64,000 bases of DNA, taken from an uncultured Planctomycetia bacterium (GTDB lineage Bacteria > Omnitrophota > Gorgyraeia > 2-02-FULL-51-18 > JAGOUK01). The notes beneath the pieces were generated by a model, which did not search any database, was not told where the DNA came from, and saw only the letters and a list, made by a program, of their open reading frames with translations. The DNA is taken from assembly GCA_964430735.1 (NCBI GenBank), contig CAYSFB010000005.1, positions 110,390 through 174,389 of the forward strand, in the 5' to 3' direction. Both the position numbers and the translations under genes were made by a program. Shown one piece after another: positions 5,001 through 20,554 of the stretch. Each line of letters begins with the position of its first letter. The first letter of the stretch is position 1.

Positions 5001-7183
5001 CGAATCCCGCGCGTCCGTGGCTGAAGGACGCGGGCGTTATGAAGGATGCGGGGGTCAACGCCATCCGGTTGTACACGACGGTCGAGCAGATTCTAGGATC
5101 CGTCTCGGCTGCCAAAGACTTCCATTCCAAAGGTATTTACACCTTCATGGGACATGACCTCGGGTTTTGGACCCGCCCGATGTCCGATTACCGCGACCCC
5201 GCGGTGCGTGCGGCTGTCACCTCCGAAGTACTGAAGATGGTCGAAGCCGGCAAAAACGAGCCGGGTGTTCTTGCCTGGATCCTCGGCAACGAAAACAACT
5301 CCGCATTTGAAGGTGTTCCTTCGCCCGAAAAAACTGCTCAGGCTGAGGCGTATTTTTCATTCGTCAATTCACTGGCGGAGCAGATCCGGGACATCGATCC
5401 GACCCGTCCCGTCATTATGGGCCTTGGCGAAACGCAGCACATCGACCTCGTTTCCAAGCTCACGCCGGACGTCGACGCGGTCGGCTTGATTGCGTACCGC
5501 GGAGATAACTTTGCCGGGCTTTTCACGGAGTATTCCAAAAAGATCAACAAGCCCATTCTTGCGCTTGAGTATGGCGCCGACAGCTACAACGCGCTGACCG
5601 GCGGACCGGACGAGGCTGTCCAGGCGCAGTACCTGCTCTCGCTTTGGAAGGACATCCGCCGCAACACGACCATGGACACCGCGTCCGGCGTCGCGCTGGG
5701 CGGGTTCCTGTACGAATGGGTCGACCAGTGGTGGCGTGCCGATGCGAACAATCCGGCGAGCTGGAAGGTGCAGGATGCCCAGGGCCAGTGGTCCAGTGCA
5801 TCCTACCTTTATGATTACAACGTCCCCGGCGGCCTCAATGTCAACGAGGAGTGGTTCGGCGTGATGAAGCTCGTTCCCGACACCCAGAACCCCGGATTCT
5901 TCGTCCCTGCACCCAAGCTCGCGCTCACGGGGCTCACGCCGCTGTGGAATCAGGCCGGCAGTCTGACGCCCGAAGTGCTGGGTCTCAAGATCGTCGGGCC
6001 TTCGAATCCGACGGCGGTGCGGCCTGTGCCTGCGGCAACGGCCGCCGCCCAGTCGGAATCGGCCCGCACGCCTTCGATCCGCATCGCCTCCAATAACGCA
6101 GGCGGCACGGCGTTTGCGCTGCCCGGAGGAGAATCCGTCTGGACGCGAGGCGTCGTTTACAGCCCGACTCCGATCGGTCAGGGCCCGACCTTCGATTATC
6201 TGGCCGACACGACCCGTCCCTGGACCCGCGACGGGGAATTCATGGCCAAGGCCGGCATCAATTCCGTCCTGACCTATGTCAGTCCCAACAACCTGCCGGG
6301 CGCCCAGAGCCTGGCGTCCGACCTCTACAAGACCCACAAGATCTGGACCTTTGCGGCGCTGGATCCGGGCCTTTGGTCCGGATCGCTGACGCCGGACTAC
6401 ACGGATTCGGCCGTCCGCGACCGGATTTCTGCGGAGATCCTTCAATCCGTCCAGAGTCTCAAGGGCTCCGACGGTATCGCGGCTTGGGTGATTTCGAACC
6501 GTCAGGGCTTCCTGCGCGGAGAAGATGGTCTGAGTCAGGGGAGCCGGGAAGCGTATTACACCTTCCTGAACGAGCTCACGCAGAAGATCAAATCGGCCGA
6601 TCCTTCCCGTCCGGTCATCGTCGAAGTGCTGGGCCGCGAAAACCTCAAGTGGATCGCGGGCCTCGTTCCCGACGCGGATGCGGTCGGTATTTACGGCAAG
6701 TCCGGAGCGTGGGGATGGAAGTCGGACTTCGACGCGGTCCGTTCGAATTTTGCCAAACCTGTCATCGTGCTGGCCTTCGGCGCGGACAGCTACAACATGC
6801 GGTCCGCCGCTCCGGACGAGGAAGCCCAGGCCTGGATGATCGAATCCCAGTGGCGGGCGCTCGACCCCCAGACGACCCGCTTGAACGATTCCGGTCAGGT
6901 GCTCGGTGGATTCGTTTACGAATGGACGGACTCCTGGTGGAAGGCCGATCCTGCGAACCCGTCGACCTGGTCGGTGCAGGACGTCTCGGCCCAGAGCTCG
7001 AGCCGCGCTTATCCCGCGGATTATGAAGTGGCCGGCAACCAAAACGTGAATGACGAGTGGTTCGGTGTGATGAAGGTCCAGCCGTCCGTCGCCGGTTCGG
7101 CGGCGCCCGTTTTGGCGCCCAAGAAGGTCTACGAGACTCTGACGCAGATGTGGGCTTCTCCCAAGGAAGTCTGCGCCGGCTAG
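2084..7183 (+). CDS. 1699-aa membrane-anchored protein with four tandem clan GH-A-like TIM-barrel (GH2/GH5-like) domains, alternately catalytically intact and degenerate
   Basis: ATG 2084. N-terminal TM helix [19 protein letters not shown]. Repeats 1 and 3 keep the acid/base motif WILGNENN (nt ~2611 and ~5281) and the nucleophile region IEFGAD / LEYGAD. Repeats 2 and 4 have VIGYKNH / VISNRQG and MFGAD / LAFGAD, so both Glu residues are lost. All four conserve EW[TV]D.WW[KR]A. Confidence 0.6.
3508..3748 (+). repeat. low-complexity Gly-Ser(-Ala/Val/Thr) linker (GSGSGxGSG...) between GH repeats 1 and 2; degenerate GGC-TCG/TCT-GGT nucleotide repeat
   Basis: About 80 aa of [46 protein letters not shown]... 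are read in frame. Confidence 0.8.
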
Positions 7184-7207
7184 GAGTTGCCAGTCCGGCG
7201 GTTTTTT
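7174..7207 (+). terminator. hairpin CGCCGG-15 nt-CCGGCG followed by GTTTTTT overlapping the stop of the GH gene; intrinsic-terminator-like
   Basis: Seen directly. The loop is large (15 nt), so the call is weak. Confidence 0.35.
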
Positions 7208-7260
7208 AATATCCTATACCGATTCATTTTTAGGCCGTAAACACAGAGGAAGTACCGTTT

Positions 7261-8427
7261 ATGGGTTCGATTCGTACCGCGATTTTTGGCGTCGGCAACT
7301 GTGCAAGCTCACTCGTTCAGGGCCGCTTTTATTATGCGGACCGCAAGGCGAACGTTCCGGGCCTGATCACCAAGAGCTTCGGCGGCTACTACGCGGCGGA
7401 CATCGAATACGTGGCGGCCTTTGACATCGACCGGCGCAAAGTCGGCCTCGACCTTTCCAAGGCCATTTTTTCGCCCCCCAACTGCACGACGATCTTCCAG
7501 TCCAAGATCCCGAACATGAAGTGCACGGTCGAGCAGGGCTACATCATCGATTCCATCGCCGCGCACAACCAGGACTTCAGCGAGAATCAGCGCTTCGAAC
7601 CCCTCAAGAACCGCGACGCGTCGGCCGCCGAGGCCAAGGCGCGCATTGTGAAGTCCCTGAAGGCCAAGGGCGTCGAAGTCGTCGTCAATTATCTTCCCGT
7701 CGGCAGCGAGCAGAACGTCCGCTTCTACGCGCAATGCGCCCTTGAGGCGGGATGCGCGTTCGTCAATGCCGTTCCCGTGTTCGTGTCCAAGATCATGGGC
7801 GAGGACTTCCGCCGCAAAGGCCTTCCGATCCTCGGCGATGACATCAAATCCCAGGTCGGCGCCACCATCGTCCACCGCGTGCTCGCGAAGCTGTTCGAGG
7901 ACCGGGGCCAATCGATCAAGCGCACGTATCAGCTCAACGTCGGCGGCAACACCGATTTCATGAACATGCTCGACCGCACGCGCCTGGAGTCCAAGAAGAT
8001 CTCGAAGACCCAGGCCGTCACCAGCCAGATCAGCAGCGACAACACGCTCCCCAAGGACGACGTCCACGTGGGCCCGAGCGACTTCGTGCCCTGGCTCAAC
8101 GACAACAAGCTCTGCTTCATCCGCATCGAGGCCGAGCAGTTCGGCGGCGTGCCGATGAACCTCGAGCTGCGTCTCTCGGTCGAGGACTCCCCGAATTCCG
8201 CCGGCGTCATCACCGACGCCATCCGCGCGGCCAAGGTCGCGCTCGACCGGGGCCTGGGCGGACCGATCATCGACGCGTCGGCCTATCTCTTCAAGTCGCC
8301 CGTGAAGCAGTTCGACGACGCGGTCGCCCGTCAGATGCTCATCGACTTCGCGAACTCCGCGTCGGCCAAGCCGGCCGCCAAGTCCGCAGGCAAGGCCCGC
8401 TCCAAGCGCGCCGCGCTGGCCGCATAG
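7261..8427 (+). CDS. ino1: myo-inositol-1-phosphate synthase (bacterial/archaeal type)
   Basis: Motifs AIFGVGNCASSLVQG, YLPVGSE, FYAQCALEAGCAFVNA, GDDIKSQVGATIVHRVLAKLFEDRG and QLNVGGNTDFMNMLDRTRLESKKISKTQAVTS match actinobacterial Ino1 almost residue for residue. SD AGAGGAAG lies upstream. Confidence 0.92.
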   Translation: MGSIRTAIFGVGNCASSLVQGRFYYADRKANVPGLITKSFGGYYAADIEYVAAFDIDRRKVGLDLSKAIFSPPNCTTIFQSKIPNMKCTVEQGYIIDSIAAHNQDFSENQRFEPLKNRDASAAEAKARIVKSLKAKGVEVVVNYLPVGSEQNVRFYAQCALEAGCAFVNAVPVFVSKIMGEDFRRKGLPILGDDIKSQVGATIVHRVLAKLFEDRGQSIKRTYQLNVGGNTDFMNMLDRTRLESKKISKTQAVTSQISSDNTLPKDDVHVGPSDFVPWLNDNKLCFIRIEAEQFGGVPMNLELRLSVEDSPNSAGVITDAIRAAKVALDRGLGGPIIDASAYLFKSPVKQFDDAVARQMLIDFANSASAKPAAKSAGKARSKRAALAA

Positions 8428-8525
8428 CCCTCAAGGGCCCGAGAGTCCTCCTGAGCCCCAAGAAGACCTTCACGCTCCTTTCCTGGAACATCAACGGAAT
8501 CCGTTCCGCTGAGAAAAAAGGCTTT

Positions 8526-9233
8526 TTGGACTGGATGAAAACCGCCGGCGCCGACCTCATCGGCGTCCAGGAAACAAAAGCCCACCCCGATCAACTGACT
8601 CCGACCCTGCGCAACCCGGAAGGTTTTTTCACCTCCTGGGCGTCCGCCGAACGCAAAGGCTACAGCGGCGTGGCGACTTTTTCCAAACGCCAGCCGGTCA
8701 AGACGACGATCGGCTGCGGGGTGGCGGAGTTTGATCTCGAGGGGCGGGTGATCCAGACGGACTTCGAGGACTTCACCCACTTCAACATTTACTTTCCGAA
8801 CGGCCAGCGCGACGACGTACGGCTCAAATACAAGCTCAAGTTCTACGACCATATCCTGGACGTGTTCGAGGGTTTGCGCCGCAAGGGCCGCAAGGTCGTG
8901 ATCGCGGGGGACGTGAACACGGCCCATCAGGAGATCGACCTCGCCCGGCCCAAGGAAAACAGCAAAACGTCGGGCTTTTTGCCCGTTGAAAGGGCCTGGA
9001 TCGACAAGCTGGTGAGCCTGGGGTACATCGACACGCTGCGCGTTTTCCGCAAGGAACCGGGCCTTTACACCTGGTGGGACCAGATCAGCCGCGCCCGCGA
9101 GCGCAACGTCGGCTGGCGCATCGATTACCACATCGTTTCGGCCGATTTGGCCCCCCATCTGGACGACGCCTGGACCGAGCCCGATGTCATGGGCTCGGAC
9201 CATTGCCCGGTGGGACTCAGGCTTGCCTTTTGA
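8526..9233 (+). CDS. xth: exodeoxyribonuclease III / AP endonuclease (the called TTG start is probably too far downstream)
   Basis: GVQETK, NIYFPNG, VIAGDVNTAHQEIDL, GYIDTLR, WRIDYHIVS and SDHCPV all match. The conserved N-terminal WNINGIR block is encoded in frame upstream (8484-8504) with no ATG, GTG or TTG. Confidence 0.85.
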   Translation: MDWMKTAGADLIGVQETKAHPDQLTPTLRNPEGFFTSWASAERKGYSGVATFSKRQPVKTTIGCGVAEFDLEGRVIQTDFEDFTHFNIYFPNGQRDDVRLKYKLKFYDHILDVFEGLRRKGRKVVIAGDVNTAHQEIDLARPKENSKTSGFLPVERAWIDKLVSLGYIDTLRVFRKEPGLYTWWDQISRARERNVGWRIDYHIVSADLAPHLDDAWTEPDVMGSDHCPVGLRLAF

Positions 9234-9239
9234 CCGGCT

Positions 9240-9249
9240 GTGATAAAAT
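9240..9249 (+). promoter_or_regulatory. extended -10-like element GTGATAAAAT, 10 nt upstream of the ispG ATG
   Basis: The same decamer class recurs at 10407..10416 and 56055..56064, in each case 0-13 nt before a start codon in GC-rich DNA. Confidence 0.4.
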
Positions 9250-9258
9250 AGCGCCCTC

Positions 9259-10392
9259 ATGAGCCAAACCACCCGGATCGTCCAAGTCAAAGACCTCAAG
9301 ATCGGCGGGGGCAACCCCATCGCCGTGCAGTCGATGTGCGCCACGCACACCCGCGACATCGCGGCCACCGTCGAGCAGGTCAACATGCTCCACGCGGCCG
9401 GCGCCGACCTCATCCGCATCGCGGTCGACAACAAGCTCGACGTCGAAGCCCTCAAAGAAATCCGCCGCCAGGCCAACCCCAAGGCGCGCCTCGTCGTCGA
9501 CCTTCAGGAAAATTATCCGCTCGCCGAACTCGTCGCGCCCTTCGTCGATAAGATGCGCTACAACCCGGGCCACCTCCACCACCTGAACAAGGACGTTCCG
9601 GTGAAGGAAAAAGTCCGCTGGCTCGTCGAGATCGCCAAGAAAAACGGCAACGCGCTCCGCATCGGCGTGAATTGTGGTTCCGTCGCCCCCGAATTCCTCG
9701 AGCGTTATCCCGGCGATCACGTGCGCGCGATTGTCGAATCGGCCGCCTGGCATTGCTCGCTCATGGACGAGTTCGGCTTTAAGAACTTCGTCGTTTCGCT
9801 CAAGGACTCGGATCCCGACAAGGTCATCGTCTGCAACGAAGAATTCTCCAAGCGCCGGCCGGACGTTCCCATCCATCTCGGCGTCACCGAAGCGGGCCTT
9901 CCGCCCGACGGCATCATCAAGACGCGCATCGCGTTCGAAAAACTCCTGAGCCAGGGCATCGGCGACACCTTCCGCGTCTCGCTCACCGTGCCGAATCCCG
10001 AGAAGCATCTCGAGATTTCGACCGGGCACAAGATCATCGACGACGTGAAGAACGGCCGGTTCATCTCAGTCCCGAAAAACTTCGGGAAGGGGATGAACGT
10101 CATTTCCTGCCCGTCCTGCTCGCGCGTCGAGAACCAGGACTTCGTGAAGCTCGCGCAGGAGGTCAAAAAGATGACCGAATTCGCGAAGGAAAAGAAAATT
10201 ACCATCGCCGTCATGGGCTGCCGCGTGAACGGCCCCGGCGAGACCGACGATGCCGATCTCGGCCTCTGGTGCGGCCCCTCGACCGTCACGCTCAAGCAGA
10301 AGACCGAGACGCTCGGCTCCTACACCTACGACACCATCCTGCCCGTTCTTAAGTCCAAGCTCGACGCACTGATTCTCGCCCAGGCGCTCTGA
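9259..10392 (+). CDS. ispG: 4-hydroxy-3-methylbut-2-en-1-yl diphosphate synthase (IspG/GcpE)
   Basis: [26 protein letters not shown] and [10 protein letters not shown] match. Confidence 0.95.
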
Positions 10393-10406
10393 CGCCGTTT
10401 CGGGGC

Positions 10407-10416
10407 GTGATAAAAT
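10407..10416 (+). promoter_or_regulatory. extended -10-like element GTGATAAAAT overlapping the first ATG of murI; this implies a leaderless or short-leader transcript starting at ATG 10424
   Basis: The motif is identical to 9240..9249. Confidence 0.35.
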
Positions 10417-11239
10417 GCAGTCTATGAATCGGCCCATCGGCGTTTTTGATTCGGGGATCGGGGGACTGACCGTCGTAAAGGCGTTTTTGCGCCATTTGCC
10501 GGAGGAGCCCATCGTGTACTTCGGCGACACAGCCCGCGTGCCGTACGGGACCAAGTCCAAAGAGACCATCACCCGCTTTTCCGCCGAGATCATCCGCTTC
10601 CTCAAGAAGCGGGACGTCAAAATGATCGTGATCGCCTGTCACACCGCCTCGGCCCTGGCGCTCGATTCGGTGATCCAGGAATTCCCGGGCCTGCCCATCT
10701 TGGGCGTTGTCGATCCGGCCTCGCGCAAGGCGGTCGAAACGTCCCGGTCCAAACGCATCGGCGTGATCGGGACCAAGTCGACGATTTCGAGCGGGTCGTT
10801 CGAGCGGGCCATTTACGGCCTCGAGCCCGACGCGCGCGTGTTCAGCCGGGCCTGTCCGCTCTTCGTGCCGATGGTCGAAGAGGGCCGCCGGTCGGGTCCG
10901 ATCGTCGATGCGGTCGTGCGCGATTATCTCGACCCGCTGGCCCAGGAGAACATCGACAGCCTCATTCTGGGATGCACGCATTACCCGATCCTGGCCGACC
11001 GGATCCGCGAAGCGCTCCCGGCCGGCGTGACGCTCGTCGACCCGGCCGAAGAAACGGCATTGTCCGCCAAGTTCGTGCTCAAAGAGCTCGGGTTGTCCGC
11101 ATCAGGCAGCGCCGCCGCTCAGCTCAAATGCTTCGTTTCGGACGACGCGCTGAGCTTCAAGCGCCTGGGCGAGTCCTTTTTGGGCCGGCCGATCACGTCG
11201 GTCGAGCGCGTGGTGGACGAAGAATTTCAGACTGCATAA
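10415..11239 (+). CDS. murI: glutamate racemase
   Basis: IGVFDSGIGGLTV, YFGDTARVPYG, IACHTAS and LGCTHYP match. The true start may be the second ATG at 10424. Confidence 0.9.
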   Translation: MQSMNRPIGVFDSGIGGLTVVKAFLRHLPEEPIVYFGDTARVPYGTKSKETITRFSAEIIRFLKKRDVKMIVIACHTASALALDSVIQEFPGLPILGVVDPASRKAVETSRSKRIGVIGTKSTISSGSFERAIYGLEPDARVFSRACPLFVPMVEEGRRSGPIVDAVVRDYLDPLAQENIDSLILGCTHYPILADRIREALPAGVTLVDPAEETALSAKFVLKELGLSASGSAAAQLKCFVSDDALSFKRLGESFLGRPITSVERVVDEEFQTA

Positions 11240-11265
11240 ACTTTTTTAAAAAAGCAGAACTTTTT

Positions 11266-12015
11266 ATGGAAAATCCGACCAACCCCGACCTGCACCGCCA
11301 GCCAGCCGCTCAGACGACGACCGAGATCTCCGAGATCTTTTCGTCGATTCAGGGCGAGGGGCCGTATTTGGGCAAAAAGCAGATCTTCGTCCGGTTCGGC
11401 CGCTGCAACATGCACTGCCATTATTGCGACGAGCTCGACAAGATGCAGAAGGGGATGTATCAATCCATCGCTATTTCCGAGGTGCTGCGCCAGATCGATG
11501 ACCATGAGCGCGAGCAGGGCCGCCACCATTCCGTGAGTCTCACCGGCGGCGAACCGCTGGTGTACCCGCGCGCGCTCGAGGCCATCCTGCCGGAGCTCAA
11601 AGCCCGCGGCCTTTTGACGTATCTCGAGACGAACGGCACGCTGCCTAAGGTGCTCGAGCGCGTGATCGGCCAGATCGACATCGTCGCGATGGACTTCAAG
11701 CCGTCGAGCAGCACCGGCGACCGCGCGTTCTGGAGCGAGCACCGCGACTTCCTCGCCGTCGCGCGCCGCACGGAAGTGTTCGTCAAAACGGTCGTTACGC
11801 CGGCCGTCACCGTCGAGGATATCCGCAAGGCGGTCGAAATCACCGCTTCCGTCGATCCGCGCATTCCGTTCATTTTTCAGCCCCAGAGCCTGCTCACCGG
11901 CATCAGCGTCGACGCGATGAAGCTTATCGAAAACGAACTTTTTGCCGTGGCAGCCGCATCGCTCAAAGACGTCCGTGTGATCCCCCAGATGCACAAAATC
12001 TGGGGTATGCGGTAA
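11266..12015 (+). CDS. queE: 7-carboxy-7-deazaguanine synthase (radical SAM, QueE)
   Basis: IFSSIQGEGPYLGKKQIFVRFGRCNMHCHYCD matches the QueE Cx3Cx2C cluster region. ATG 11266 is in frame inside the longer track ORF 10972..12015, whose N-terminal extension overlaps murI and is rejected. Confidence 0.85.
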   Translation: MENPTNPDLHRQPAAQTTTEISEIFSSIQGEGPYLGKKQIFVRFGRCNMHCHYCDELDKMQKGMYQSIAISEVLRQIDDHEREQGRHHSVSLTGGEPLVYPRALEAILPELKARGLLTYLETNGTLPKVLERVIGQIDIVAMDFKPSSSTGDRAFWSEHRDFLAVARRTEVFVKTVVTPAVTVEDIRKAVEITASVDPRIPFIFQPQSLLTGISVDAMKLIENELFAVAAASLKDVRVIPQMHKIWGMR

Positions 12016-12026
12016 GAGCCCGTCCC

Positions 12027-13319
12027 ATGGCTTCCTGGCAATCACTCGGACAAGTCGAAACGCTCAAGCAAAAGCCGGTCCAGGAAGTCTGGGTCGACGG
12101 CAAGCTCGTTGCGCTCACTTATCATGACGGCGCGTTCGGCGCCGTTTCTGGCACCTGCCTTCATATCGGCGGGCCTCTCGGGCAGGGGAAGATCAATGTC
12201 GAAGGCTATCTCGTCTGTCCCTGGCATCAGTGGATGTTCCATTGCAAGACCGGCCAGGCACGGCCGGGGATTCCGGCGCAAGTCGCCAGCTATGAACTTA
12301 AAATCGAGAACGGCGAACTTTTTATCAATCCGGCTTCGACGACCCAGGACAAGCACGCCGAACACAAGCCGCATCCGCTGACCCGCAAGCCCGTCCGCAC
12401 ACCCGGTCCCGTCCGCGTGCTCGGCATCTCCACGACGGCCATGAACAAGGATTTTCCGCGCGTCTCCACCTCGGATGCGGTGCTCGAAGAAGCGCTGGCC
12501 CATGCGAAGAAGTCCGGGTCCGAAACTCAGCTCATCAAGCTCAACGACCTCAAGTTCCGCGCGTGTGAAGGGTATTATTCCAAAAGTGCCGAGGCCTGCA
12601 CCTGGCCGTGCTCGATCACGCAGATGGACCCGGCCGACGAGCTCGACCGCGTGTACGAAGCGCTCGTCTTTTGGGCCGACGTTGTCCTGATCTCGACGCC
12701 GATTCGCTGGGGCGCGGCGAGTTCGTTGTACTTCAAGATGGTCGAGCGGATGAATTGCATCCAGAACCAGGAAACGATCGCGAACAACACGCTCATTCAG
12801 AACAAGGTCGCCGCGTTCCTGATCACCGGAGGCCAGGACAATATTCAGGCGGTCGCCGGCCAGATGATGACTTTTTTCACCGAGATCGGCTTCGTGTTCC
12901 CGCCGCATTCCTTCGTCGCGCACAGCCGCGGCTGGGCGGCCGAGGATATGGAAAGCAACGTGGCTGCGGTGCTCGGAAGCGATGATTTGAAGAAGGACGT
13001 CCGTGAGCTGGTCGATCGGTGCATCGAAACGGCCAAGCCGTTGGTCGCAAAGTCCGACCAGGCCGCCAAACAGGGGGACAGAACCGTGAATCACAAGCAG
13101 AACGCGCCGTTTGTGAAGGATGAGACTCCGGGCCGCAAGGCATGGTGCTCCTGCGGAGAATCCGCCAACCAGCCCTACTGCGACGGCAGCCACAAGATCA
13201 AGAACACCGGCAAAAGCCCCGTCATCGTCGAGATCACCGAAGCCAAAAAAGTCGCGTGGTGCGGCTGCAAGCAGTCGGGCAGCGGCCCCTTTTGCGACGG
13301 CTCGCATAAAAAAATCTAA
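12027..13319 (+). CDS. three-domain redox fusion: N-terminal Rieske [2Fe-2S], central flavodoxin-like NAD(P)H-dependent FMN reductase (Isf-like), and two C-terminal CDGSH iron-sulfur motifs
   Basis: Rieske CLHIGGPL...CPWHQW. Flavodoxin-like VRVLGISTTAMNKDFPRVSTSDAVLEEALAHAK with Cys cluster RACEGYYSKSAEACTWPC. Two CDGSHK motifs in the last 50 aa. Confidence 0.7.
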   Translation: MASWQSLGQVETLKQKPVQEVWVDGKLVALTYHDGAFGAVSGTCLHIGGPLGQGKINVEGYLVCPWHQWMFHCKTGQARPGIPAQVASYELKIENGELFINPASTTQDKHAEHKPHPLTRKPVRTPGPVRVLGISTTAMNKDFPRVSTSDAVLEEALAHAKKSGSETQLIKLNDLKFRACEGYYSKSAEACTWPCSITQMDPADELDRVYEALVFWADVVLISTPIRWGAASSLYFKMVERMNCIQNQETIANNTLIQNKVAAFLITGGQDNIQAVAGQMMTFFTEIGFVFPPHSFVAHSRGWAAEDMESNVAAVLGSDDLKKDVRELVDRCIETAKPLVAKSDQAAKQGDRTVNHKQNAPFVKDETPGRKAWCSCGESANQPYCDGSHKIKNTGKSPVIVEITEAKKVAWCGCKQSGSGPFCDGSHKKI

Positions 13320-13334
13320 AGGGGACACTCGATC

Positions 13335-14069
13335 ATGAGCTCAGCCAAATCCACCCAGCGCCACGACGGCCGGACCCACGCCCAAATGCGTCCGGTCAAA
13401 CTCAAGGCCCGCGCCAACCGCCACGCCGAAGGATCGTGCCTGGTCACGGTCGGTGAGACGGAAGTGCTTTGCACCGCGACCGTCGAGAACAAGGTGCCTC
13501 CTTTCCTCAAAGGTTCCGGCAAGGGCTGGGTGACGGCTGAGTACGCGATGCTGCCGCGGTCGTGCCCGACCCGGATCGCGCGCGACATCTCCAAGGGCAA
13601 ACTCGACGGCCGCAGTTCCGAGATCCAGCGGCTCATCGGCCGCTCGCTCCGCAGCGTCATGGATATGTCCAAGCTCGGCGAGCGGACCATCCTGATCGAT
13701 TGCGACGTTTTTTCGGGCGACGGCGGGACGCGCTGCGCTTCGATCACCGGCGGTTTCGTCGCATTGGCGCATGCCTGCGGCAAACTCCTCAAAGACGGCA
13801 TCATCGCCGAGAACCCGATCCGCGACCATGTCGCCGCCGTGAGCGTCGGTGTCGTCAAAGGGACGCCCTGTCTCGACCTCTGTTACGTCGAGGACGCGGC
13901 AGCCGACGTGGACATGAACGTCATCATGACCGGCTCCGGCAAATTCATCGAAGTGCAGGGGACCGCCGAACGCGAACCCTTCGACGACGCCGCGATGCAA
14001 AAGCTTCTCGCTCTCGCCAAATCCGGCGTCCGCGACCTCGTCGCCCTCCAGAAAAAAGCCCTTAAATAA
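13335..14069 (+). CDS. rph: ribonuclease PH
   Basis: [56 protein letters not shown] and [19 protein letters not shown] match. Confidence 0.95.
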
Positions 14070-14071
14070 CT

Positions 14072-14680
14072 ATGCACACGATCGTGATCGGGAGCGCCAA
14101 TAAGGACAAGGCGCGGGAGCTGCAGAGACTTCTCAAGGGTCTCAAGGTGAAGGTGCTGACGCTTGATGCTTTTCCAAAAGCGCCGAAGGTCGTCGAGAAC
14201 GGGCGCACCTTTGAGGCCAATGCGTGCAAGAAGGCTCGCGTGTACTCGAAGCTGAGCGACCACCTCACGCTGGCGGATGACTCCGGCCTCTGCGTCCGTG
14301 TCCTCAATAACCGGCCCGGCGTCTATTCCGCCCGGTTCGCCGGACCCGGCTGCAATTACCTCGACAACAATAAAAAACTCCTCCGCCTTCTCAAAGGCAA
14401 AACCGGCGCCCAGCGGTCCGCTTTTTTCTGCTCCACGATCGCGCTGTACCGGCGCGGCAAAAGGATCAAGGTCGTCAAAGGCGTCTGCAACGGCCGGATC
14501 GCGGAAGCGATGGCCGGCACGAACGGATTCGGATTTGATCCGACCTTCATCCCGTCCGGCTCCAAAAAAACTTTTGCCCAGATGACCCCCGCCCAAAAAA
14601 ACGCGGTCAGCCACCGCGCCCGGGCGCTCGCGGCGGCGCTGCGCTTCATCAAGCCCTACTTCCGCGCCTCCAAGATCTGA
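14072..14680 (+). CDS. rdgB: dITP/XTP pyrophosphatase (Ham1/RdgB family)
   Basis: LADDSGL, RPGVYSARF, GFGFDPTFIP and TFAQM...KNAVSHRARA match. This is the conserved rph-rdgB pair. Confidence 0.9.
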   Translation: MHTIVIGSANKDKARELQRLLKGLKVKVLTLDAFPKAPKVVENGRTFEANACKKARVYSKLSDHLTLADDSGLCVRVLNNRPGVYSARFAGPGCNYLDNNKKLLRLLKGKTGAQRSAFFCSTIALYRRGKRIKVVKGVCNGRIAEAMAGTNGFGFDPTFIPSGSKKTFAQMTPAQKNAVSHRARALAAALRFIKPYFRASKI

Positions 14681-14691
14681 CGCGAGCCCTT

Positions 14692-17600
14692 ATGAACGCC
14701 CCGTTCCGGAGCAGCGACATCATCAACCATGTGGGCCGCGCCGTTTATGAAAAGGGGCGGGACTATTGGGACCGCGGCCGCGTGACCCGGATGGCCCGCG
14801 CCGGCAATCAGATCACGGGGTCGGTGCGCGGCACCCGCCCCTCCGCCTACAAGCCCTCCATCACCCTGAACGCGACGGGCATCGCCGGCTCCCTGTGCGA
14901 TTGTCCCGTCATGTATGCCTGCAAACACGTCGCCGCTCTGGCGCTCAAGGCGATCGAGGGAACCGTTCCTGCGGCCGCCGGCAAAAACGCCTCTGCGCCC
15001 GCGGCCGCGCCAACCCGGTCATCCCGTTCCGGAAGCAATTGGACCGAAGCGCTGCGCGGCCTCGCCGACCGGCCGGGTGATCCCGAGCCCAAAGGGGAAT
15101 TGAGAATCCTTCTGCGGCTGGAAAAAGCGCAGCAGGTGTACCGCCCGCGCGAAGGCGACGCCGGCGGATGGGATCTGGAATTGCGCCCTCAGGTGTATTA
15201 TCCCGATGCGCGCCGCGTGTCGATGACGGACTTGCAGTGGAAGGATGTGTATTCGGGGGCTCCGACCCACCGGCTGGGCGGAACGTTCATTTCGCGGCGG
15301 CAGAGCTGGTTTTTCCAGCAGCTGGCGCAGGCGCTGCGCACCGGGTACTTTGACGAAAGTTCCAAGTGGCTCGGCGTGAACAGCGAAAACGCGTTTCCGG
15401 TCTGGGAAGTGCTTTCGCGCAGCCGGTCGTGCGGCGTGGCGCTCGTCTGCTCCGACCTTCAGGACACGCGGCCGGTGCCGGTTCACACGACGCCGGTTTC
15501 GCTCCATGTCACGATCCGGGACGATGCCGACGGCGTGCTGCTCGAGAGCGCGGCGCATGCGGGTGAGGACCCGGCCCGCGACGGCATCCGGCTTCTGGGC
15601 GACCCGCCGGTGTTCGGCGCCGTCCTGCGCCGTCCGCCGGGCCTCGAAGCGCCGGACGCGCCCCCTCAGATCGTTGCGCTGCATCCCGCGGACGGCTTGC
15701 CGCCCGAATCCGCTTCGATCGCCGCCTGGGCGTCACATCCCGTCCTCATCCCCCAAAAAGAAATCGCACTTTTCGTCAAAGACTACGCCCCGCAGCTCTT
15801 GCGCGGCTGCCGCGTGGAGAACCGGTCGACCCGGGTGGCGCTGCCCGTTCACGCCGCGCCGCAGCTGAGCGTGCATGTTTCGAAGTCCGGTCCGGACGGC
15901 GTCGCGCTGAGCTGCGTGTGGAAATACGCCGGCGTGACTGTGCCGCTGTCGAGTTCCGAAGCGCTGTGCGCGAACGGCTCGGAACTGCCGATCCTGAGGG
16001 ATCCGGACCAGGAACGCGCGATCCGCGCTGCGGTGCAAGGCATTTGGGGACTGGGACCGGTGCAGGACAGGACGGTTCTGCGCGGACCGGAAGCGGCGCG
16101 GTTCCTGACCACCGCGCTCGCCGAGCTCGAGTCGGACCCGCGCGTCGCCGTCGTCCGGGATCCGGACATTCCGCAGCCGACCGACGCCGGCGAGCCGCCG
16201 TCGGCGGAATTCAGCGTAACCGAGCGGAACGGCGACAACGATTGGTTCGACTTCGACATGACCGTCACGGTCGGCGGCGAGCGTGTTCCGTTCGACCGGG
16301 TGTTCGCGGCGCTGACGGTCGGGGAAGAGTATTTGTTTTTGCCCAGCGGGCGTTTCGTGCTGCTCAAGAGCCCGTACTTCGACCGGCTGCGGCTGCTGAT
16401 TCAGCAGGCCCGGCACTTGTGGGACCCGAAGTCGGGTCGATGGGTGGTGAGCCGTTTTCAGGCGGGGTGGTGGAACGAGCTGATCCAGCTCGGCGTGGTC
16501 GGGCGTCAGGCCGACCGGTGGCGGGAGTCCATGCAGGGGCTTTTGGACTTCAAAGGAGTGCCGATCCTGGCCCAGCCGGCGGCGTTTCAGGGTGTTCTGC
16601 GGCATTATCAGATCGAAGGGTATTCCTGGATGCGTTTCCTGCGTGATCAGGGGATCGGCGGCATCCTCGCCGACGACATGGGTCTCGGCAAAACGGTGCA
16701 GACCATCTCGATGATCGCGTCCTGCCGCGATGCCGCCGACGCGTCCTCGTCCGAAAAGCGCCGTCCGTTCCTGATCGTCGCCCCCACCAGCGTCGTGGAA
16801 AACTGGGACGCGGAATTCGACCGGTTCGCGCCGCATCTGAAGCGCGTCGTGATGCGCCGCGGCGACCGGACCGACGCGCACGAGCGGATGGCCGACGCCG
16901 ACGTCACGGTGACGTCGTACGCGCTCCTCCAGCGCGACGGAGACCGGTTCGTCGGCCAGGCGTGGGACACCGTCATCTTCGACGAAGCGCAGTTCGTCAA
17001 AAACCATTTGTCCAAGGCCTACGCCTTCATCCGCCGCCTTAAGGCCCGGTGCAAAATCGCGCTGACCGGCACGCCGCTCGAGAACAACCTGATGGAGCTC
17101 TGGTCGATCTGCTCGGTCGCGGCGCCGGGACTTTTTCCTCCTCCGGAAAAGTTCAAAGAGACGTTCCAGAAGCCCATCGAAAAGGACTCCGACCGCGAGG
17201 CGCTCGGCGCGCTGCGGGCGCACTTGAGGCCGTTTCTTCTGCGCCGGATGAAGGAAATGGTCGAAAAGGAACTTCCGCCCAAGACGGAGCAGACTTGGTT
17301 CGTCGACATGAGCCCCAAGCAGAAGCATGTGTACGACGTCCAGCTGCAGCGCGAGCGTCAGCGCGTCCTAGGGCTGTTGGACGACGGCGGGCTCAAGGAT
17401 CACCGGTTCCAGATCCTCACGGCGCTCACGCGTCTGCGGCAGCTGTGCCTGCACGCGGACCTGGTCGACGCCAAGCACAAGGACGTGCCGTCCGCCAAGC
17501 TGGACGAACTCATGGACCGGCTCGAAACGATCCTGGCGGAAGGCCATCGCGTGATCGTGTTCAGCCAGTTCACGTCTTTTTTGGCGCATGTGAAGGCCCG

Positions 17601-17997
17601 GTTCGAGGCGCGCAAGTGGGAATACTGTTATCTGGACGGCACGACGACGCGCCGCAAGCAGGTGCTGGAACGCTTCGAAAAAGAGCGGCAGATCCCGCTG
17701 TTTTTGATCAGCTTGAAGGCCGGCGGCTTCGGCTTGAACCTCACGTCGGCGGATTATTGCGTGCTGCTCGACCCCTGGTGGAACCCGGCGGTCGAGGCGC
17801 AGGCCGTGGATCGGACGCACCGCATCGGCCAGACCCGCCACGTGATGATTTACCGGATGATCCTCAAGGACACGATCGAGGAAAAAGTTCTCAAGCTCCA
17901 GGAAAAGAAAAAAGCGCTGTTCAGCGACGTCCTCGAAGACGGCGACGCCTTTTCGGCGCTGGTCACCGAGTCGGATATCCGGAATATTTTTTCTTAG
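14692..17997 (+). CDS. SNF2-family ATP-dependent helicase with an N-terminal SWIM zinc finger
   Basis: SWIM motif CDCPVMYACKHVAA. Walker A ILADDMGLGKTVQTI, DEAQFVKN, LTGTPLENN and helicase-C QAVDRTHRIGQTRHVMIYRMI match. Confidence 0.85.
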   Translation: MNAPFRSSDIINHVGRAVYEKGRDYWDRGRVTRMARAGNQITGSVRGTRPSAYKPSITLNATGIAGSLCDCPVMYACKHVAALALKAIEGTVPAAAGKNASAPAAAPTRSSRSGSNWTEALRGLADRPGDPEPKGELRILLRLEKAQQVYRPREGDAGGWDLELRPQVYYPDARRVSMTDLQWKDVYSGAPTHRLGGTFISRRQSWFFQQLAQALRTGYFDESSKWLGVNSENAFPVWEVLSRSRSCGVALVCSDLQDTRPVPVHTTPVSLHVTIRDDADGVLLESAAHAGEDPARDGIRLLGDPPVFGAVLRRPPGLEAPDAPPQIVALHPADGLPPESASIAAWASHPVLIPQKEIALFVKDYAPQLLRGCRVENRSTRVALPVHAAPQLSVHVSKSGPDGVALSCVWKYAGVTVPLSSSEALCANGSELPILRDPDQERAIRAAVQGIWGLGPVQDRTVLRGPEAARFLTTALAELESDPRVAVVRDPDIPQPTDAGEPPSAEFSVTERNGDNDWFDFDMTVTVGGERVPFDRVFAALTVGEEYLFLPSGRFVLLKSPYFDRLRLLIQQARHLWDPKSGRWVVSRFQAGWWNELIQLGVVGRQADRWRESMQGLLDFKGVPILAQPAAFQGVLRHYQIEGYSWMRFLRDQGIGGILADDMGLGKTVQTISMIASCRDAADASSSEKRRPFLIVAPTSVVENWDAEFDRFAPHLKRVVMRRGDRTDAHERMADADVTVTSYALLQRDGDRFVGQAWDTVIFDEAQFVKNHLSKAYAFIRRLKARCKIALTGTPLENNLMELWSICSVAAPGLFPPPEKFKETFQKPIEKDSDREALGALRAHLRPFLLRRMKEMVEKELPPKTEQTWFVDMSPKQKHVYDVQLQRERQRVLGLLDDGGLKDHRFQILTALTRLRQLCLHADLVDAKHKDVPSAKLDELMDRLETILAEGHRVIVFSQFTSFLAHVKARFEARKWEYCYLDGTTTRRKQVLERFEKERQIPLFLISLKAGGFGLNLTSADYCVLLDPWWNPAVEAQAVDRTHRIGQTRHVMIYRMILKDTIEEKVLKLQEKKKALFSDVLEDGDAFSALVTESDIRNIFS

Positions 17998-18016: not shown

Positions 18017-20554
18017 TCAGGACTGCGGAGTGAAGGCCGGCTCTTTGAAGTTCCCGGTGATCAGGTAGCGGGTGATTTTGTTCTCGGCGATGTTGATGAG
18101 GGCGGGGGTAAGACCTCCGACTTCGCTGGCCTCGCGGATGATGCCGGATGTGAAGCGCGAGACCACGTTGAGGGCCATTGTCGTATCGAAGCCAATGCGG
18201 CCGTTGAAGTGCACATCGATCAGATCCGAAGACATCGTGCAGTCGTCCGTTCGAACTTCGCCGCCCGAAACGGTGAAAGATCCGTTGGCGCTTTTGAACA
18301 CGATATTCTCGGCCCCCTCGATCGTGACGAAGAGCACCTTTTTGAGCCGCTTGAAGAGCTCCGTCTGCCACAACTGCCCGTCGCTCACCCGGAAGCTTCC
18401 CTGACCTTTGAACGACTTCGGATCGGTCATGACGCCCGACAGGACGAGGTCCAGGTTCAGGAGCCCTGAGAATTTGTTCTTGATGAAGTCGAGCTTTTCG
18501 CAGAATTTGCCGAGATCCGCGTCCTGCGTGAAGATGTGCGTTTCGAAATAAGGCTTTTTCAGATCCGTCAGGTCCGCGCGTCCCGTCGCCCGCGCTTCGC
18601 CGCCGTAGAATCCTGCCTTCGCGTATAGAATCTCGAGGATTCCCGATTCGAGCCGGAGATCGGCCTCGATCGGCGCAAACGTCACCGTGTCCGCGACCGT
18701 GAGCCGGTCCGATTCGGCTTCCAGACGCAGGCTGACGGAGTTCAGGTTCTTGAACGAGCCGTGCACGTGGCCTTTGCCGTCGATGACGCCTTTGAGCTTC
18801 AGGTTCTTGAGCCAGGGCTGTTGGGCCTGCCAGTCAGCCGCCAGGCGTTCGGGGACCAGGTGCGCGCGGAAGTCCGCGTTGATCACGGGGTTTTTCATCA
18901 GGATCAGGGTGCCGGACGCGCCCGCATGCGACGGACCCGACTCGAGCGTCAGCGTCGAGAATTCGATCCGGTCGGAGAAGGAACGGAAGCGCGCTCCGAC
19001 CTCCCATTTGCGGGTCGCGAGGTTGACGCGGCCCAGGCCGCCGGGCGCGTTGCTGAATTGGCCGCTCAGCGTGTAGTTGTCTTTGCCGTGACGGAAGAAC
19101 AGGTCGTCCGTTCCGAATACGCGCATGTCCTGGACGGTGATCGTGCCGTTCAGCTCGGTGATCGGACTTTTGAGCGGCTTGGGTTCGAGGCGTCCGTTCC
19201 GGACATCGAGCCGGATCGACCGGATGTTCCGGGTGAGTTCCGAGGGGAGGCCCGACATCGTGGCTTCGAGCTTGAGATCGCCTTTGAGCGATCCGGGGTT
19301 CAGCGCATGCTCGAAGACCTTGGGCGCCATCGGCCGCCACACGTTGAGATCGGAGAGGGTCTGGCGCAGCGTGAGCTCGGTCCGGTGGGATTCGGACCGG
19401 TCGACCGTGCCTTCGACCGTAAAGCTGGTTTTGTCCCAGGTACCCTGGATGCGCGGAATCTCGATCAGTTCCGGGTTCCAGGCGACCGCCGCGGAGCTCA
19501 AGCGCACTTCACGAATGTTGTCGGTGAGATTCCTGGCCGTCACGGACTTGGCCTCAAGCAGACCGTCGGTGACGCGGAGCTTGCGGTCGTTGAAGTCAAA
19601 GGATCCGGAGAGTTTGACGCCGAAGGCACCCGCGGCTTCGCGTCGGCCCCAGCGTCCTTCGAGCGCCGCCCGTTTGGATTCCAAATCGAAGGTCAGCAGC
19701 GTCGCCCCGTCGTATCGCAGGTCGAACGAGGCGTCGCCGCGCAACTTGTTGATGCTGATGCTGTGCTTTAAAAGCGCCGGGACGAGCCAGGAGGGGACGC
19801 GGTCGATATTGCCGGTCAGGTTGAGCCGATGCCGTCCGTCGGCCAGGTTCACGAGGCCTTCGGCCTTGAATTCCCCGCGGCCGAACGAAGTCCTGAAGTC
19901 GGCCTGCACCGGAATCAGCGGACGGCGCGACAGCTGCGTCCGGAAATGGATTTCTTTGAGCACTTCGATCGGTTCCGTCGCCGCGGCTGCGCCTGGTTTG
20001 GCCGCGGGCAGGATCGAGATGCGGCCGTGGCGGATCTCGAGCTCGTTCAGGTAAACGTTGGACGGCAGGAACGAATCGTCGAAGATGGCCTCGAGCACGA
20101 CGAACGGGTGGGGGACGGGGTTCTCGACCGGTACGGGAGCGTCTTCCGAACCGGCCGGCGCGGCCGGGGCTGGAACCGCGGCGGGTTTGGGCTTTACAGG
20201 ACCCAGCCGGACTTCGGTGACGGCCGAGTCGACTTCGATTTTTTGCAGGACGATCCGGTCGTCCTGGAGAAAAGCCGGCAGGTCCGTCGCCAGCCGGATC
20301 GATTGCGCGCGGAACAGCTCTTCTCCTTTTTTGCCTTTGAGCACCGGTCGGTCGATCCGGATCCCGTGGAACGGCAGGTAGTGGACGCGCTCGAAGTCCG
20401 CCTCGAATCCGGTGGCTTTGCGGATGGCGTCGATGGGGATTTGTTTGAGGTTGCCGGGCAATAGTCCCCAATGCCAGTACGCCGCCGCCAGGACGAGCAG
20501 GAGGAGGATGAGGATTCTGAGGAAACGCCGTAAGGCGGCGACATGGGAGCGCAT
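18017..20554 (-). CDS. AsmA-family-like large envelope protein (N-terminal TM anchor plus long periplasmic beta-rich region)
   Basis: The longest ORF in this region. N-terminal LRILILLLLVLAAAYWHW. No enzymatic motifs. Family assignment is by architecture only. Confidence 0.45.
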   Translation of the reverse strand: MRSHVAALRRFLRILILLLLVLAAAYWHWGLLPGNLKQIPIDAIRKATGFEADFERVHYLPFHGIRIDRPVLKGKKGEELFRAQSIRLATDLPAFLQDDRIVLQKIEVDSAVTEVRLGPVKPKPAAVPAPAAPAGSEDAPVPVENPVPHPFVVLEAIFDDSFLPSNVYLNELEIRHGRISILPAAKPGAAAATEPIEVLKEIHFRTQLSRRPLIPVQADFRTSFGRGEFKAEGLVNLADGRHRLNLTGNIDRVPSWLVPALLKHSISINKLRGDASFDLRYDGATLLTFDLESKRAALEGRWGRREAAGAFGVKLSGSFDFNDRKLRVTDGLLEAKSVTARNLTDNIREVRLSSAAVAWNPELIEIPRIQGTWDKTSFTVEGTVDRSESHRTELTLRQTLSDLNVWRPMAPKVFEHALNPGSLKGDLKLEATMSGLPSELTRNIRSIRLDVRNGRLEPKPLKSPITELNGTITVQDMRVFGTDDLFFRHGKDNYTLSGQFSNAPGGLGRVNLATRKWEVGARFRSFSDRIEFSTLTLESGPSHAGASGTLILMKNPVINADFRAHLVPERLAADWQAQQPWLKNLKLKGVIDGKGHVHGSFKNLNSVSLRLEAESDRLTVADTVTFAPIEADLRLESGILEILYAKAGFYGGEARATGRADLTDLKKPYFETHIFTQDADLGKFCEKLDFIKNKFSGLLNLDLVLSGVMTDPKSFKGQGSFRVSDGQLWQTELFKRLKKVLFVTIEGAENIVFKSANGSFTVSGGEVRTDDCTMSSDLIDVHFNGRIGFDTTMALNVVSRFTSGIIREASEVGGLTPALINIAENKITRYLITGNFKEPAFTPQS

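Follow-up and report, generated by a model that had tools for sequence, protein, structure and literature searches.

A rare Rieske/flavodoxin-like/tandem CDGSH protein is a tail-bearing variant of a widespread, uncharacterised two-domain family

INTRODUCTION

CDGSH (NEET-type) proteins have been divided into several CISD types, which include type 6, with a tandem motif, and type 7, termed 'CDC' (PMC3174974). For mitoNEET, reduced flavin mononucleotide (FMNH2), supplied by a flavin reductase and NADH, reduces the CDGSH cluster, while O2 or ubiquinone re-oxidises it (PMC9490426). The combination of CDGSH with Rieske domains has been mentioned at the level of a catalogue (PMC5859297). The function and the reductant of bacterial CDGSH proteins are unsettled. 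Here, we analyse a gene located at 12027..13319 of a 64,000-nucleotide stretch (the window) of contig CAYSFB010000005.1 from an uncultured Omnitrophota bacterium, which encodes a single 430-residue protein comprising a Rieske domain, a flavodoxin-like flavin mononucleotide (FMN) domain and two CDGSH motifs. An original prediction, made from the letters alone, had read this protein as a self-contained electron-transfer chain and, from its position directly after a gene for the radical S-adenosylmethionine (SAM) protein QueE, as a possible dedicated reductant for queuosine-pathway or other radical SAM chemistry.

RESULTS AND DISCUSSION

The 430-residue protein joins a Rieske domain, a flavodoxin-like domain and a tandem CDGSH module

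The open reading frame (ORF) extends from 12027 to 13319 on the forward strand, starts with ATG and encodes 430 amino acids (aa), in agreement with the coordinates of the original prediction. The gene is complete, its start codon lies at the same position in homologues, and an identical 430-aa protein is encoded on two further contigs. An overlapping 428-aa ORF on the opposite strand (12042..13328) was rejected as a high-GC shadow ORF. Pfam assigns three families to the protein, each above its gathering cutoff: Rieske (PF00355) at aa 3-85, with 49.8 bits against 20.3; FMN_red (PF03358) at aa 147-302, with 49.9 bits against 24; and zf-CDGSH (PF09360), in two stretches within aa 350-430, with 67.9 bits against 29.5. 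All cluster ligands, read directly from the sequence, are intact, and the predicted content of one Rieske, one FMN reductase-like and two CDGSH domains in a single protein is thereby borne out. The AlphaFold2 model, built on 120 relatives, has a mean predicted local distance difference test score (pLDDT) of 87 and a predicted template modelling score (pTM) of 0.75. Conservation was counted over 120 relatives and, for the tail ligands, over 10 tail-bearing relatives. The protein is probably cytoplasmic, as no membrane or secretion domain is among the matches, no search having been aimed at signal peptides or transmembrane segments.

The N-terminal Rieske-type ferredoxin domain (aa 3-104, 12033..12338, forward strand) is identified by Pfam, a profile search and its ligands. 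Specifically, the [2Fe-2S] ligands C44-L-H46 and C64-P-W-H67 (nucleotides (nt) 12156-12227) are kept in 119 of the 120 relatives, and the model shows a Rieske beta-domain. In the family profile search, the best single match is mouse RFESD (3D89), over part of the domain only, while matches over the whole length are to the ferredoxins CarAc, NDO-Fd, toluene dioxygenase TodB, BphF and T4moC; the NCBIfam matches are AndAb/HcaC. The complete Cys2His2 motif is common to these ferredoxins and RFESD. Like the ferredoxin components, to which it aligns over the whole domain, the Rieske domain has no extra disulfide cysteines, and therefore its sequence points to the low-potential ferredoxin type. Unlike these free carriers, it is the N-terminal domain of a flavoprotein, for which no cognate oxygenase was found.

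The Rieske domain is followed by a conserved interdomain linker (aa 105-129, 12339..12413, forward strand), in which H116, R120 and G127 are invariant and L118 and R124 nearly so, and which is modelled at a pLDDT of 88-95. The conservation of the linker and the high confidence of the model suggest a fixed arrangement of the Rieske and flavodoxin-like domains, with the Rieske domain rigidly packed.

The flavodoxin-like domain of the WrbA/FMN_red type (aa 130-318, 12414..12980, forward strand) carries three FMN-site motifs, the phosphate loop GISTT...PRxSTS, TPIRWG and GGQDN, of which STT...PRxSTS, TPIRWG and GGQDN are invariant in 120/120 relatives. In the alignment to WrbA (1YDG), TPIRWG lines up with SPTRFG, and GGQDN with GGQE; RosB (5MJI) can also be aligned. 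Foldseek returns RosB (E 1.3e-13), followed by WrbA, ArsH, AzoR, SsuE and NQO1/2, each with a probability of 1.0. Pfam and Foldseek thus agree that the middle domain is of the flavodoxin-like FMN reductase type, as the original prediction had it. The fold is common to WrbA and the type IV NAD(P)H:quinone oxidoreductases, ArsH, AzoR and SsuE, and the WrbA/FMN_red family shares the phosphate loop, the P-x-R-(W/F)-G motif and the GGQ(D/E) loop. However, the domain shares only 13-19% identity with solved WrbA/FMN_red members; its phosphate loop is extended, it contains an invariant C-x10-C-x3-C insertion, and a Rieske domain and a CDGSH tail are covalently attached to it. RosB, the best structural match, uses FMN as a substrate, not as a cofactor.

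The insertion harbours an invariant cysteine triad, C180-x10-C191-x3-C195 (CEGYYS...ACTWPC, 12564..12611, forward strand), which is located in the loop that follows strand 2 of this domain. All 120 relatives keep C180, C191, W193 and C195, and 111 of them also keep C244. The triad could form a further metal or cluster site, or a redox disulfide.

The two-domain core (Rieske plus flavodoxin-like domain) ends in a long C-terminal helix (aa 319-349 by DSSP), which is followed by a tether (aa 350-361); helix and tether together span 12981..13109 on the forward strand. The tether has a pLDDT below 50 at aa 350-358 and is poorly conserved, with a linker identity of 8-19/25 among tail-bearing relatives.

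The tail itself (aa 362-430, 13110..13316, forward strand) is a tandem CDGSH module, compact in the model, in which the motif C-x-C-x2-(S/T)-x3-P-x-C-D-G-(S/A/T)-H occurs at aa 374-389 and again at aa 412-427. The ligands are C374-x-C376...C385-DGS-H389 for the first site (nt 13146-13193) and C412-x-C414...C423-DGS-H427 for the second (nt 13260-13307), and all eight are kept in 10/10 tail-bearing relatives. The best matches in the PDB are Magnetospirillum MmCISD (3TBN; E 4.7e-14, aa 358-429) and human MiNT/CISD3 (6AVJ; E 8.2e-12). Because the tail is most similar to these two proteins, it is assigned to the type 6 tandem-motif CISD class (PMC3174974). As in 3TBN and MiNT, the two CDGSH motifs follow one another and each has its full set of 3Cys-1His ligands; whereas 3TBN and MiNT are stand-alone proteins, the module here is the tethered C-terminal domain of a reductase.

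The tailed form is rare within a widespread and strongly conserved family

The two-domain core of ~360 aa is widespread. Protein searches gave thousands of matches, and the top ~110 two-domain clusters show 58-66% identity at a query coverage of about 80%. With the peptide signature ACTWPC[TS]I, which proved specific enough to recover the core family, a scan over one genome per GTDB species confirmed at least 564 relatives, with the core 55-66% identical across phyla. The hosts include Omnitrophota, Planctomycetota, Verrucomicrobiota, Nitrospira, Nitrosopumilaceae archaea and Gemmatimonadales, as well as Acidobacteriota, Myxococcota, Bdellovibrionota and Chloroflexi. The family is so conserved that clustering at 50% shrinks it to a few representatives. 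The two-domain parent family is 59-66% identical to the present protein over aa 1-345 and shares all of its invariant residues; it differs in having no CDGSH tail, and is itself uncharacterised.

By contrast, the tail-bearing form, with CDGSH at its C-terminus, is rare, comprising ten 90% clusters (P0001-P0009 and P0013) and ~20 sequences, none of them named. The closest tail-bearing genome match among those listed, and the sole genome-assigned member, is from an Omnitrophota metagenome-assembled genome (MAG; locus L003) and is 79% identical. It had been asked whether the architecture is common and already annotated: this applies to the two-domain core, which is very common and carries only generic names ("NAD(P)H-dependent oxidoreductase", "Rieske 2Fe-2S domain-containing protein" and "multimeric flavodoxin WrbA"), but not to the three-part form, which is rare and unnamed. 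Literature searches found no description of the three-part protein or of the function of the two-domain family. The three-part protein is, in short, a rare tailed member of an uncharacterised two-domain family that is itself widespread and strongly conserved.

The tail can also be lost. A close two-domain relative (L083; 346 aa, 81% identical) ends after the C-terminal helix, and its locus retains, at 2913-2996, an out-of-frame remnant of the second CDGSH motif, encoding ...EAKKVAWCGCKQSKNGAFCDGTHSKL*. L083 is therefore a deletion derivative of the tail-bearing form.

Further redox architectures were found. P0285 and P0289 have the reverse domain order, FMN_red and then Rieske; P0040 and others have a rubredoxin-like domain N-terminal to the core; and P0371 joins four CDGSH motifs to Fer2, guanylate cyclase and Rieske domains. 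P0133 (L088 3902-4801) is an in-frame fusion of a globin domain with the C-terminal half of the family's flavodoxin-like domain; this protein is N-terminally truncated and adjoins a truncated LysR gene. It may represent a rearranged fragment or else point to a globin-tailed variant, so we do not rely on it. A homologue search with the C-terminal 171 aa yielded no further FMN_red and CDGSH combinations; it returned mostly fragments and missed even known tail-bearing proteins, and is thus useless for counting the tailed architecture.

The core is recurrently associated with CDGSH proteins

Besides the C-terminal fusion, the core is found in a second fusion with CDGSH motifs. In P0252 (L093 2144-3868, 574 aa), a CDGSH-Fer4_19-CDGSH segment stands at the N-terminus of a core that is 55% identical to the one studied here, and the protein occurs on two independent contigs from different samples (L093 and L094). 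This segment is the type 7 'CDC' arrangement (PMC3174974), and since its CDGSH type differs from that of the tail, P0252 represents a separate fusion event.

The association extends to unfused genes. A tblastn search with the tail located a separate tandem CDGSH gene, encoding 78 aa, within a few kb of the core gene and in the same orientation in 18 of 80 core-gene loci, nearly all from Nitrospira; overall, the linkage is put at 16-18 loci. The Nitrospira array reads [DoxX]-NmrA-pirin-DsbA-like-VOC-[DUF5069/SnoaL]-core-unknown 140 aa-VOC-CDGSH-sigma54/GAF regulator, and is seen in L015, L017, L019, L020, L023, L026, L036, L041, L061, L067 and others, at about 5000-13000 of each locus. The closest stand-alone CDGSH proteins, P0132 and P0134 (63-66% identical to the tail), were rejected as a split state of the fusion, as they adjoin unrelated genes. 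Furthermore, in P0365, five CDGSH motifs are combined with an FNR-like NAD(P)H/FAD reductase, the fold of which differs from that of FMN_red. P0365 and the other mosaic architectures thus mark the pairing of a flavin reductase with CDGSH as a recurring design.

Given the C-terminal type 6 fusion, the N-terminal fusion in P0252 and the Nitrospira linkage, the association of the core with CDGSH proteins is meaningful and looks functional. From the recurrent fusions and the linkage, we tentatively propose that the Rieske-WrbA-like flavoprotein might be the physiological redox partner of prokaryotic CDGSH proteins, in a natural NAD(P)H to FMN to CDGSH relay; we regard this as possible though somewhat doubtful. 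It nominates the core as a specific and testable redox partner for the bacterial NEET-type proteins. If true, it would provide an evolutionary basis for the electron-transfer model of FMNH2 and mitoNEET, and a first function for a very widespread uncharacterised family, maybe with a further metal site at the cysteine triad. The core family merits attention in its own right, being abundant and highly conserved across bacterial phyla and ammonia-oxidising archaea, with an invariant cysteine triad and no assigned function.

The gene occupies a variable slot of a housekeeping array, directly after queE

As the original prediction had noted, the gene directly follows a gene for a QueE-like radical SAM protein (11266..12015, forward strand), which ends 11 nt before its start codon. 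The upstream protein has the radical SAM motif CNMHCHYC (CX3CX2C at nt 11404) and the C-terminal sequence VRVIPQMHKIWG. Its best NCBIfam matches are three QueE models, all below cutoff (TIGR03365, 80.4 bits against 206.1). Its best solved relative is Bacillus subtilis QueE (5TGS), to which it aligns end to end (aa 21-247 with 27-258, E 5.6e-11), and homologues from Omnitrophota MAGs that are 60% identical to it are named QueE by NCBI. The upstream gene is thus a plausible queE, having passed the structural and motif tests and failed the NCBIfam cutoffs. Downstream lies rph, encoding RNase PH (13335..14069, forward strand, by Pfam), followed by rdgB/Ham1 (14072-14680). The array in the window is co-directional and tightly packed, with gaps of 2-26 nt, and no terminator-like or promoter-like site was found between queE and the Rieske-FMN_red-CDGSH gene.

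The adjacency to queE is not conserved across loci. Specifically, tblastn with the radical SAM protein of the window, murI, ispG, xth and rph gave no match in the 80 core-gene loci, and no radical SAM gene lies beside the other tail-bearing genes examined. At L003, the tail-bearing gene is overlapped by 4 bp by a TetR gene that precedes it, with genes for ferritin/Dps, an NmrA-like protein and an AhpD-like CMD protein earlier in the locus; at other tail-bearing loci, the neighbours are a PsbP_2-like gene, Tex, and NTP_transf_8 with a type III polyketide synthase cluster. Genomes with a QueE that is 83-85% identical keep the ino1-xth-ispG-murI-queE array. In L095, the segment 1947-8796 matches window 7261-14680 and shows the same array, with rph-rdgB after a variable slot. 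This slot holds a gene for a zf_Tbcl_2 protein in L095 and L096, and other genes in L097 and L098. Because the adjacency is absent at other loci and the slot is differently filled in syntenic genomes, the position of the gene after queE is incidental, a variable slot in a housekeeping array. The proposal of a dedicated reductant for queuosine or radical SAM chemistry therefore finds no support in the neighbourhood survey (0/80 loci), and the tempting link to queuosine biosynthesis is corrected as unsupported. Recent horizontal acquisition was also considered and rejected, as composition gives no signal (GC content at third codon positions 0.78, against 0.80-0.88 in the neighbours).

A proposed NAD(P)H-driven relay and its alternatives

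The protein may well be a soluble multi-centre oxidoreductase in which an NAD(P)H to FMN to [2Fe-2S] relay serves defence against redox and electrophile stress, and we hold this reading with moderate confidence. Within it, we infer that FMN and NAD(P)H are used, which way the electrons flow, what accepts them and what physiological role results. In such a relay, hydride transfer from NAD(P)H would reduce the FMN, and the flavin would turn this two-electron currency into single electrons for the [2Fe-2S] centres, namely the rigidly packed Rieske cluster and, in the tail-bearing clade, also the two CDGSH clusters. Low-potential Rieske ferredoxins are near -150 mV and CDGSH clusters near 0 mV; therefore the CDGSH centres would be the last in the chain. 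On its flexible tether, the CDGSH module could swing between the core and the acceptor. This acceptor of electrons from the clusters would be external, for example a quinone, O2 or reactive oxygen species (ROS), or an oxidised metalloprotein, and the relay would so serve stress defence. The soluble Rieske ferredoxins closest to the Rieske domain take their electrons from reductases, which fits this relay. In the Nitrospira cluster, the CDGSH protein is encoded separately; here, partner and reductase are fused. The proposed chemistry is that of mitoNEET with a flavin reductase, in which NAD(P)H-driven reduced flavin feeds a CDGSH cluster (PMC9490426); whereas that system uses free flavin and a separate, unrelated reductase, the flavin domain is fused here and a Rieske centre is added, so that the three-part fusion would carry out the FMNH2 to CDGSH step in cis. 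The self-contained chain of the original prediction remains the natural reading of the domain content, reinforced by the independent CDGSH fusions and the Nitrospira linkage.

A stress-defence oxidoreductase is favoured because the recurrent neighbours of the core (pirin, DoxX, NmrA-like, VOC/glyoxalase, DsbA-like, AhpD-like CMD, ferritin/Dps and TetR) resemble regulons of quinone, electrophile and oxidant defence. In addition to the arrays described above, pirin directly precedes the core gene in Nitrosopumilaceae (L029, L037 and L055) and adjoins it in Pseudobdellovibrionaceae too. Several points weigh against this reading. The stress context is drawn for the most part from Nitrospira, the pairing with pirin in archaea and a single Omnitrophota locus, and most lineages have no conserved core-gene neighbours at all among the 80 loci. 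The Nitrospira arrangement is inherited and counts as one or a few events, not as many independent ones. The tail is dispensable in close relatives, as in L083, and hence may be accessory. The invariant cysteine triad is unexplained and could mean a further cofactor and different chemistry, and literature searches found no biochemical data for any member of the core family. Finally, the packing with queE (11-nt gap, no terminator) makes co-transcription with it probable; this co-transcription is a property of the housekeeping array, not evidence of shared function.

As a separate observation, a DUF5996 protein (~287 aa) adjoins the core gene in seven loci (L012, L027, L034, L039, L044, L060 and L077) from unrelated taxa, comprising an archaeon, Bacillota, Gammaproteobacteria and Thermoanaerobaculia.

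The same domains could be read with the electrons running the other way, from an external donor through the Fe-S centres (Rieske and CDGSH) to FMN and on to O2, H2O2, a quinone or another small substrate, with NAD(P)H not the donor. In the iron-sulfur flavoproteins (Isf) of anaerobes, which reduce O2 and H2O2, an Fe-S centre accompanies a flavodoxin-like FMN domain; their cluster motif presumably follows strand 2, at the same place as the Cys-rich loop of the core, and the stress-type neighbours fit this flow equally. However, no Isf chain is among the PDB family-profile matches at E ≤ 1, the three invariant cysteines are spaced unlike the compact 4-Cys [4Fe-4S] motif, and the nearest folds are the NAD(P)H-dependent WrbA, ArsH, AzoR and NQO. 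P0365, where the reductase joined to CDGSH is FNR-like and clearly NAD(P)H-dependent, also favours flow from flavin to CDGSH, and we consider the reversed direction unlikely. Less probable again is a fused reductase-ferredoxin that feeds a separate oxygenase or dioxygenase, as in three-component Rieske oxygenase systems, with the CDGSH clusters as an extra relay. The whole-length likeness of the Rieske domain to CarAc, NDO-Fd, TodB, BphF and T4moC, its AndAb/HcaC matches in NCBIfam, and the VOC-family and pirin (cupin) genes that recur beside the core in Nitrospira and archaea speak for such a role. Yet neither a Rieske oxygenase alpha subunit nor any other recognisable monooxygenase is a recurrent neighbour in the 80 loci, none is shown by the window and the other Omnitrophota-like loci, and most lineages have no conserved partner gene.

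Two further readings give the weight to the clusters or to the neighbour. In NEET proteins, the reduced cluster binds nitric oxide (NO), and cluster transfer depends on the redox state (PMC9490426; PMC5859297); the labile 3Cys-1His CDGSH clusters could accordingly sense NO, ROS or iron status, or donate [2Fe-2S], with the flavin and Rieske domains only setting their redox state. Regulators do adjoin some homologues, as with the overlapping TetR gene in L003 and the sigma-54 activator in Nitrospira, but in the large majority of genomes the core family does without CDGSH, and Pfam finds no DNA-binding or signalling output domain in the 430-aa protein, which makes a sensor or cluster donor very unlikely. 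The least probable reading, to which we attach hardly any weight, is that the protein is dedicated to donating electrons to the neighbouring QueE, or to other radical SAM enzymes, in place of flavodoxin and flavodoxin reductase for the [4Fe-4S] cluster. The 11-nt spacing to a plausible queE, with no terminator-like or promoter-like site between, is what invites it; radical SAM chemistry requires one-electron reduction at low potential, and some radical SAM enzymes, such as TYW1, have a flavodoxin domain fused to them. Against it, CDGSH clusters, typically near 0 mV, are far too positive as reductants of a radical SAM cluster. Moreover, no radical SAM homologue was found in the 80 core loci or by the other tail-bearing genes examined, the closest syntenic genomes carry another gene, or none of such kind, in the slot, and a crude motif scan of the window detected neither a QueC (SGGxDS) nor a QueD (CxxxHGH) signature.

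Other features of the window

The array is flanked by genes for an SNF2-family helicase of 1101 aa (14692-17997, forward strand) and an AsmA/DUF748-like protein of 845 aa (18017-20554, reverse strand). Beyond them, a giant gene extends over 20690-56023 on the forward strand as a single uninterrupted ORF of 11,777 aa, in keeping with an origin from Omnitrophota. The first 9,800 aa of this ORF are mostly unmatched in Pfam, with scattered matches to His_Phos_1, cytidine deaminase, PRTase, HATPase_c, Sigma70_r4_2, HEAT and HPr.

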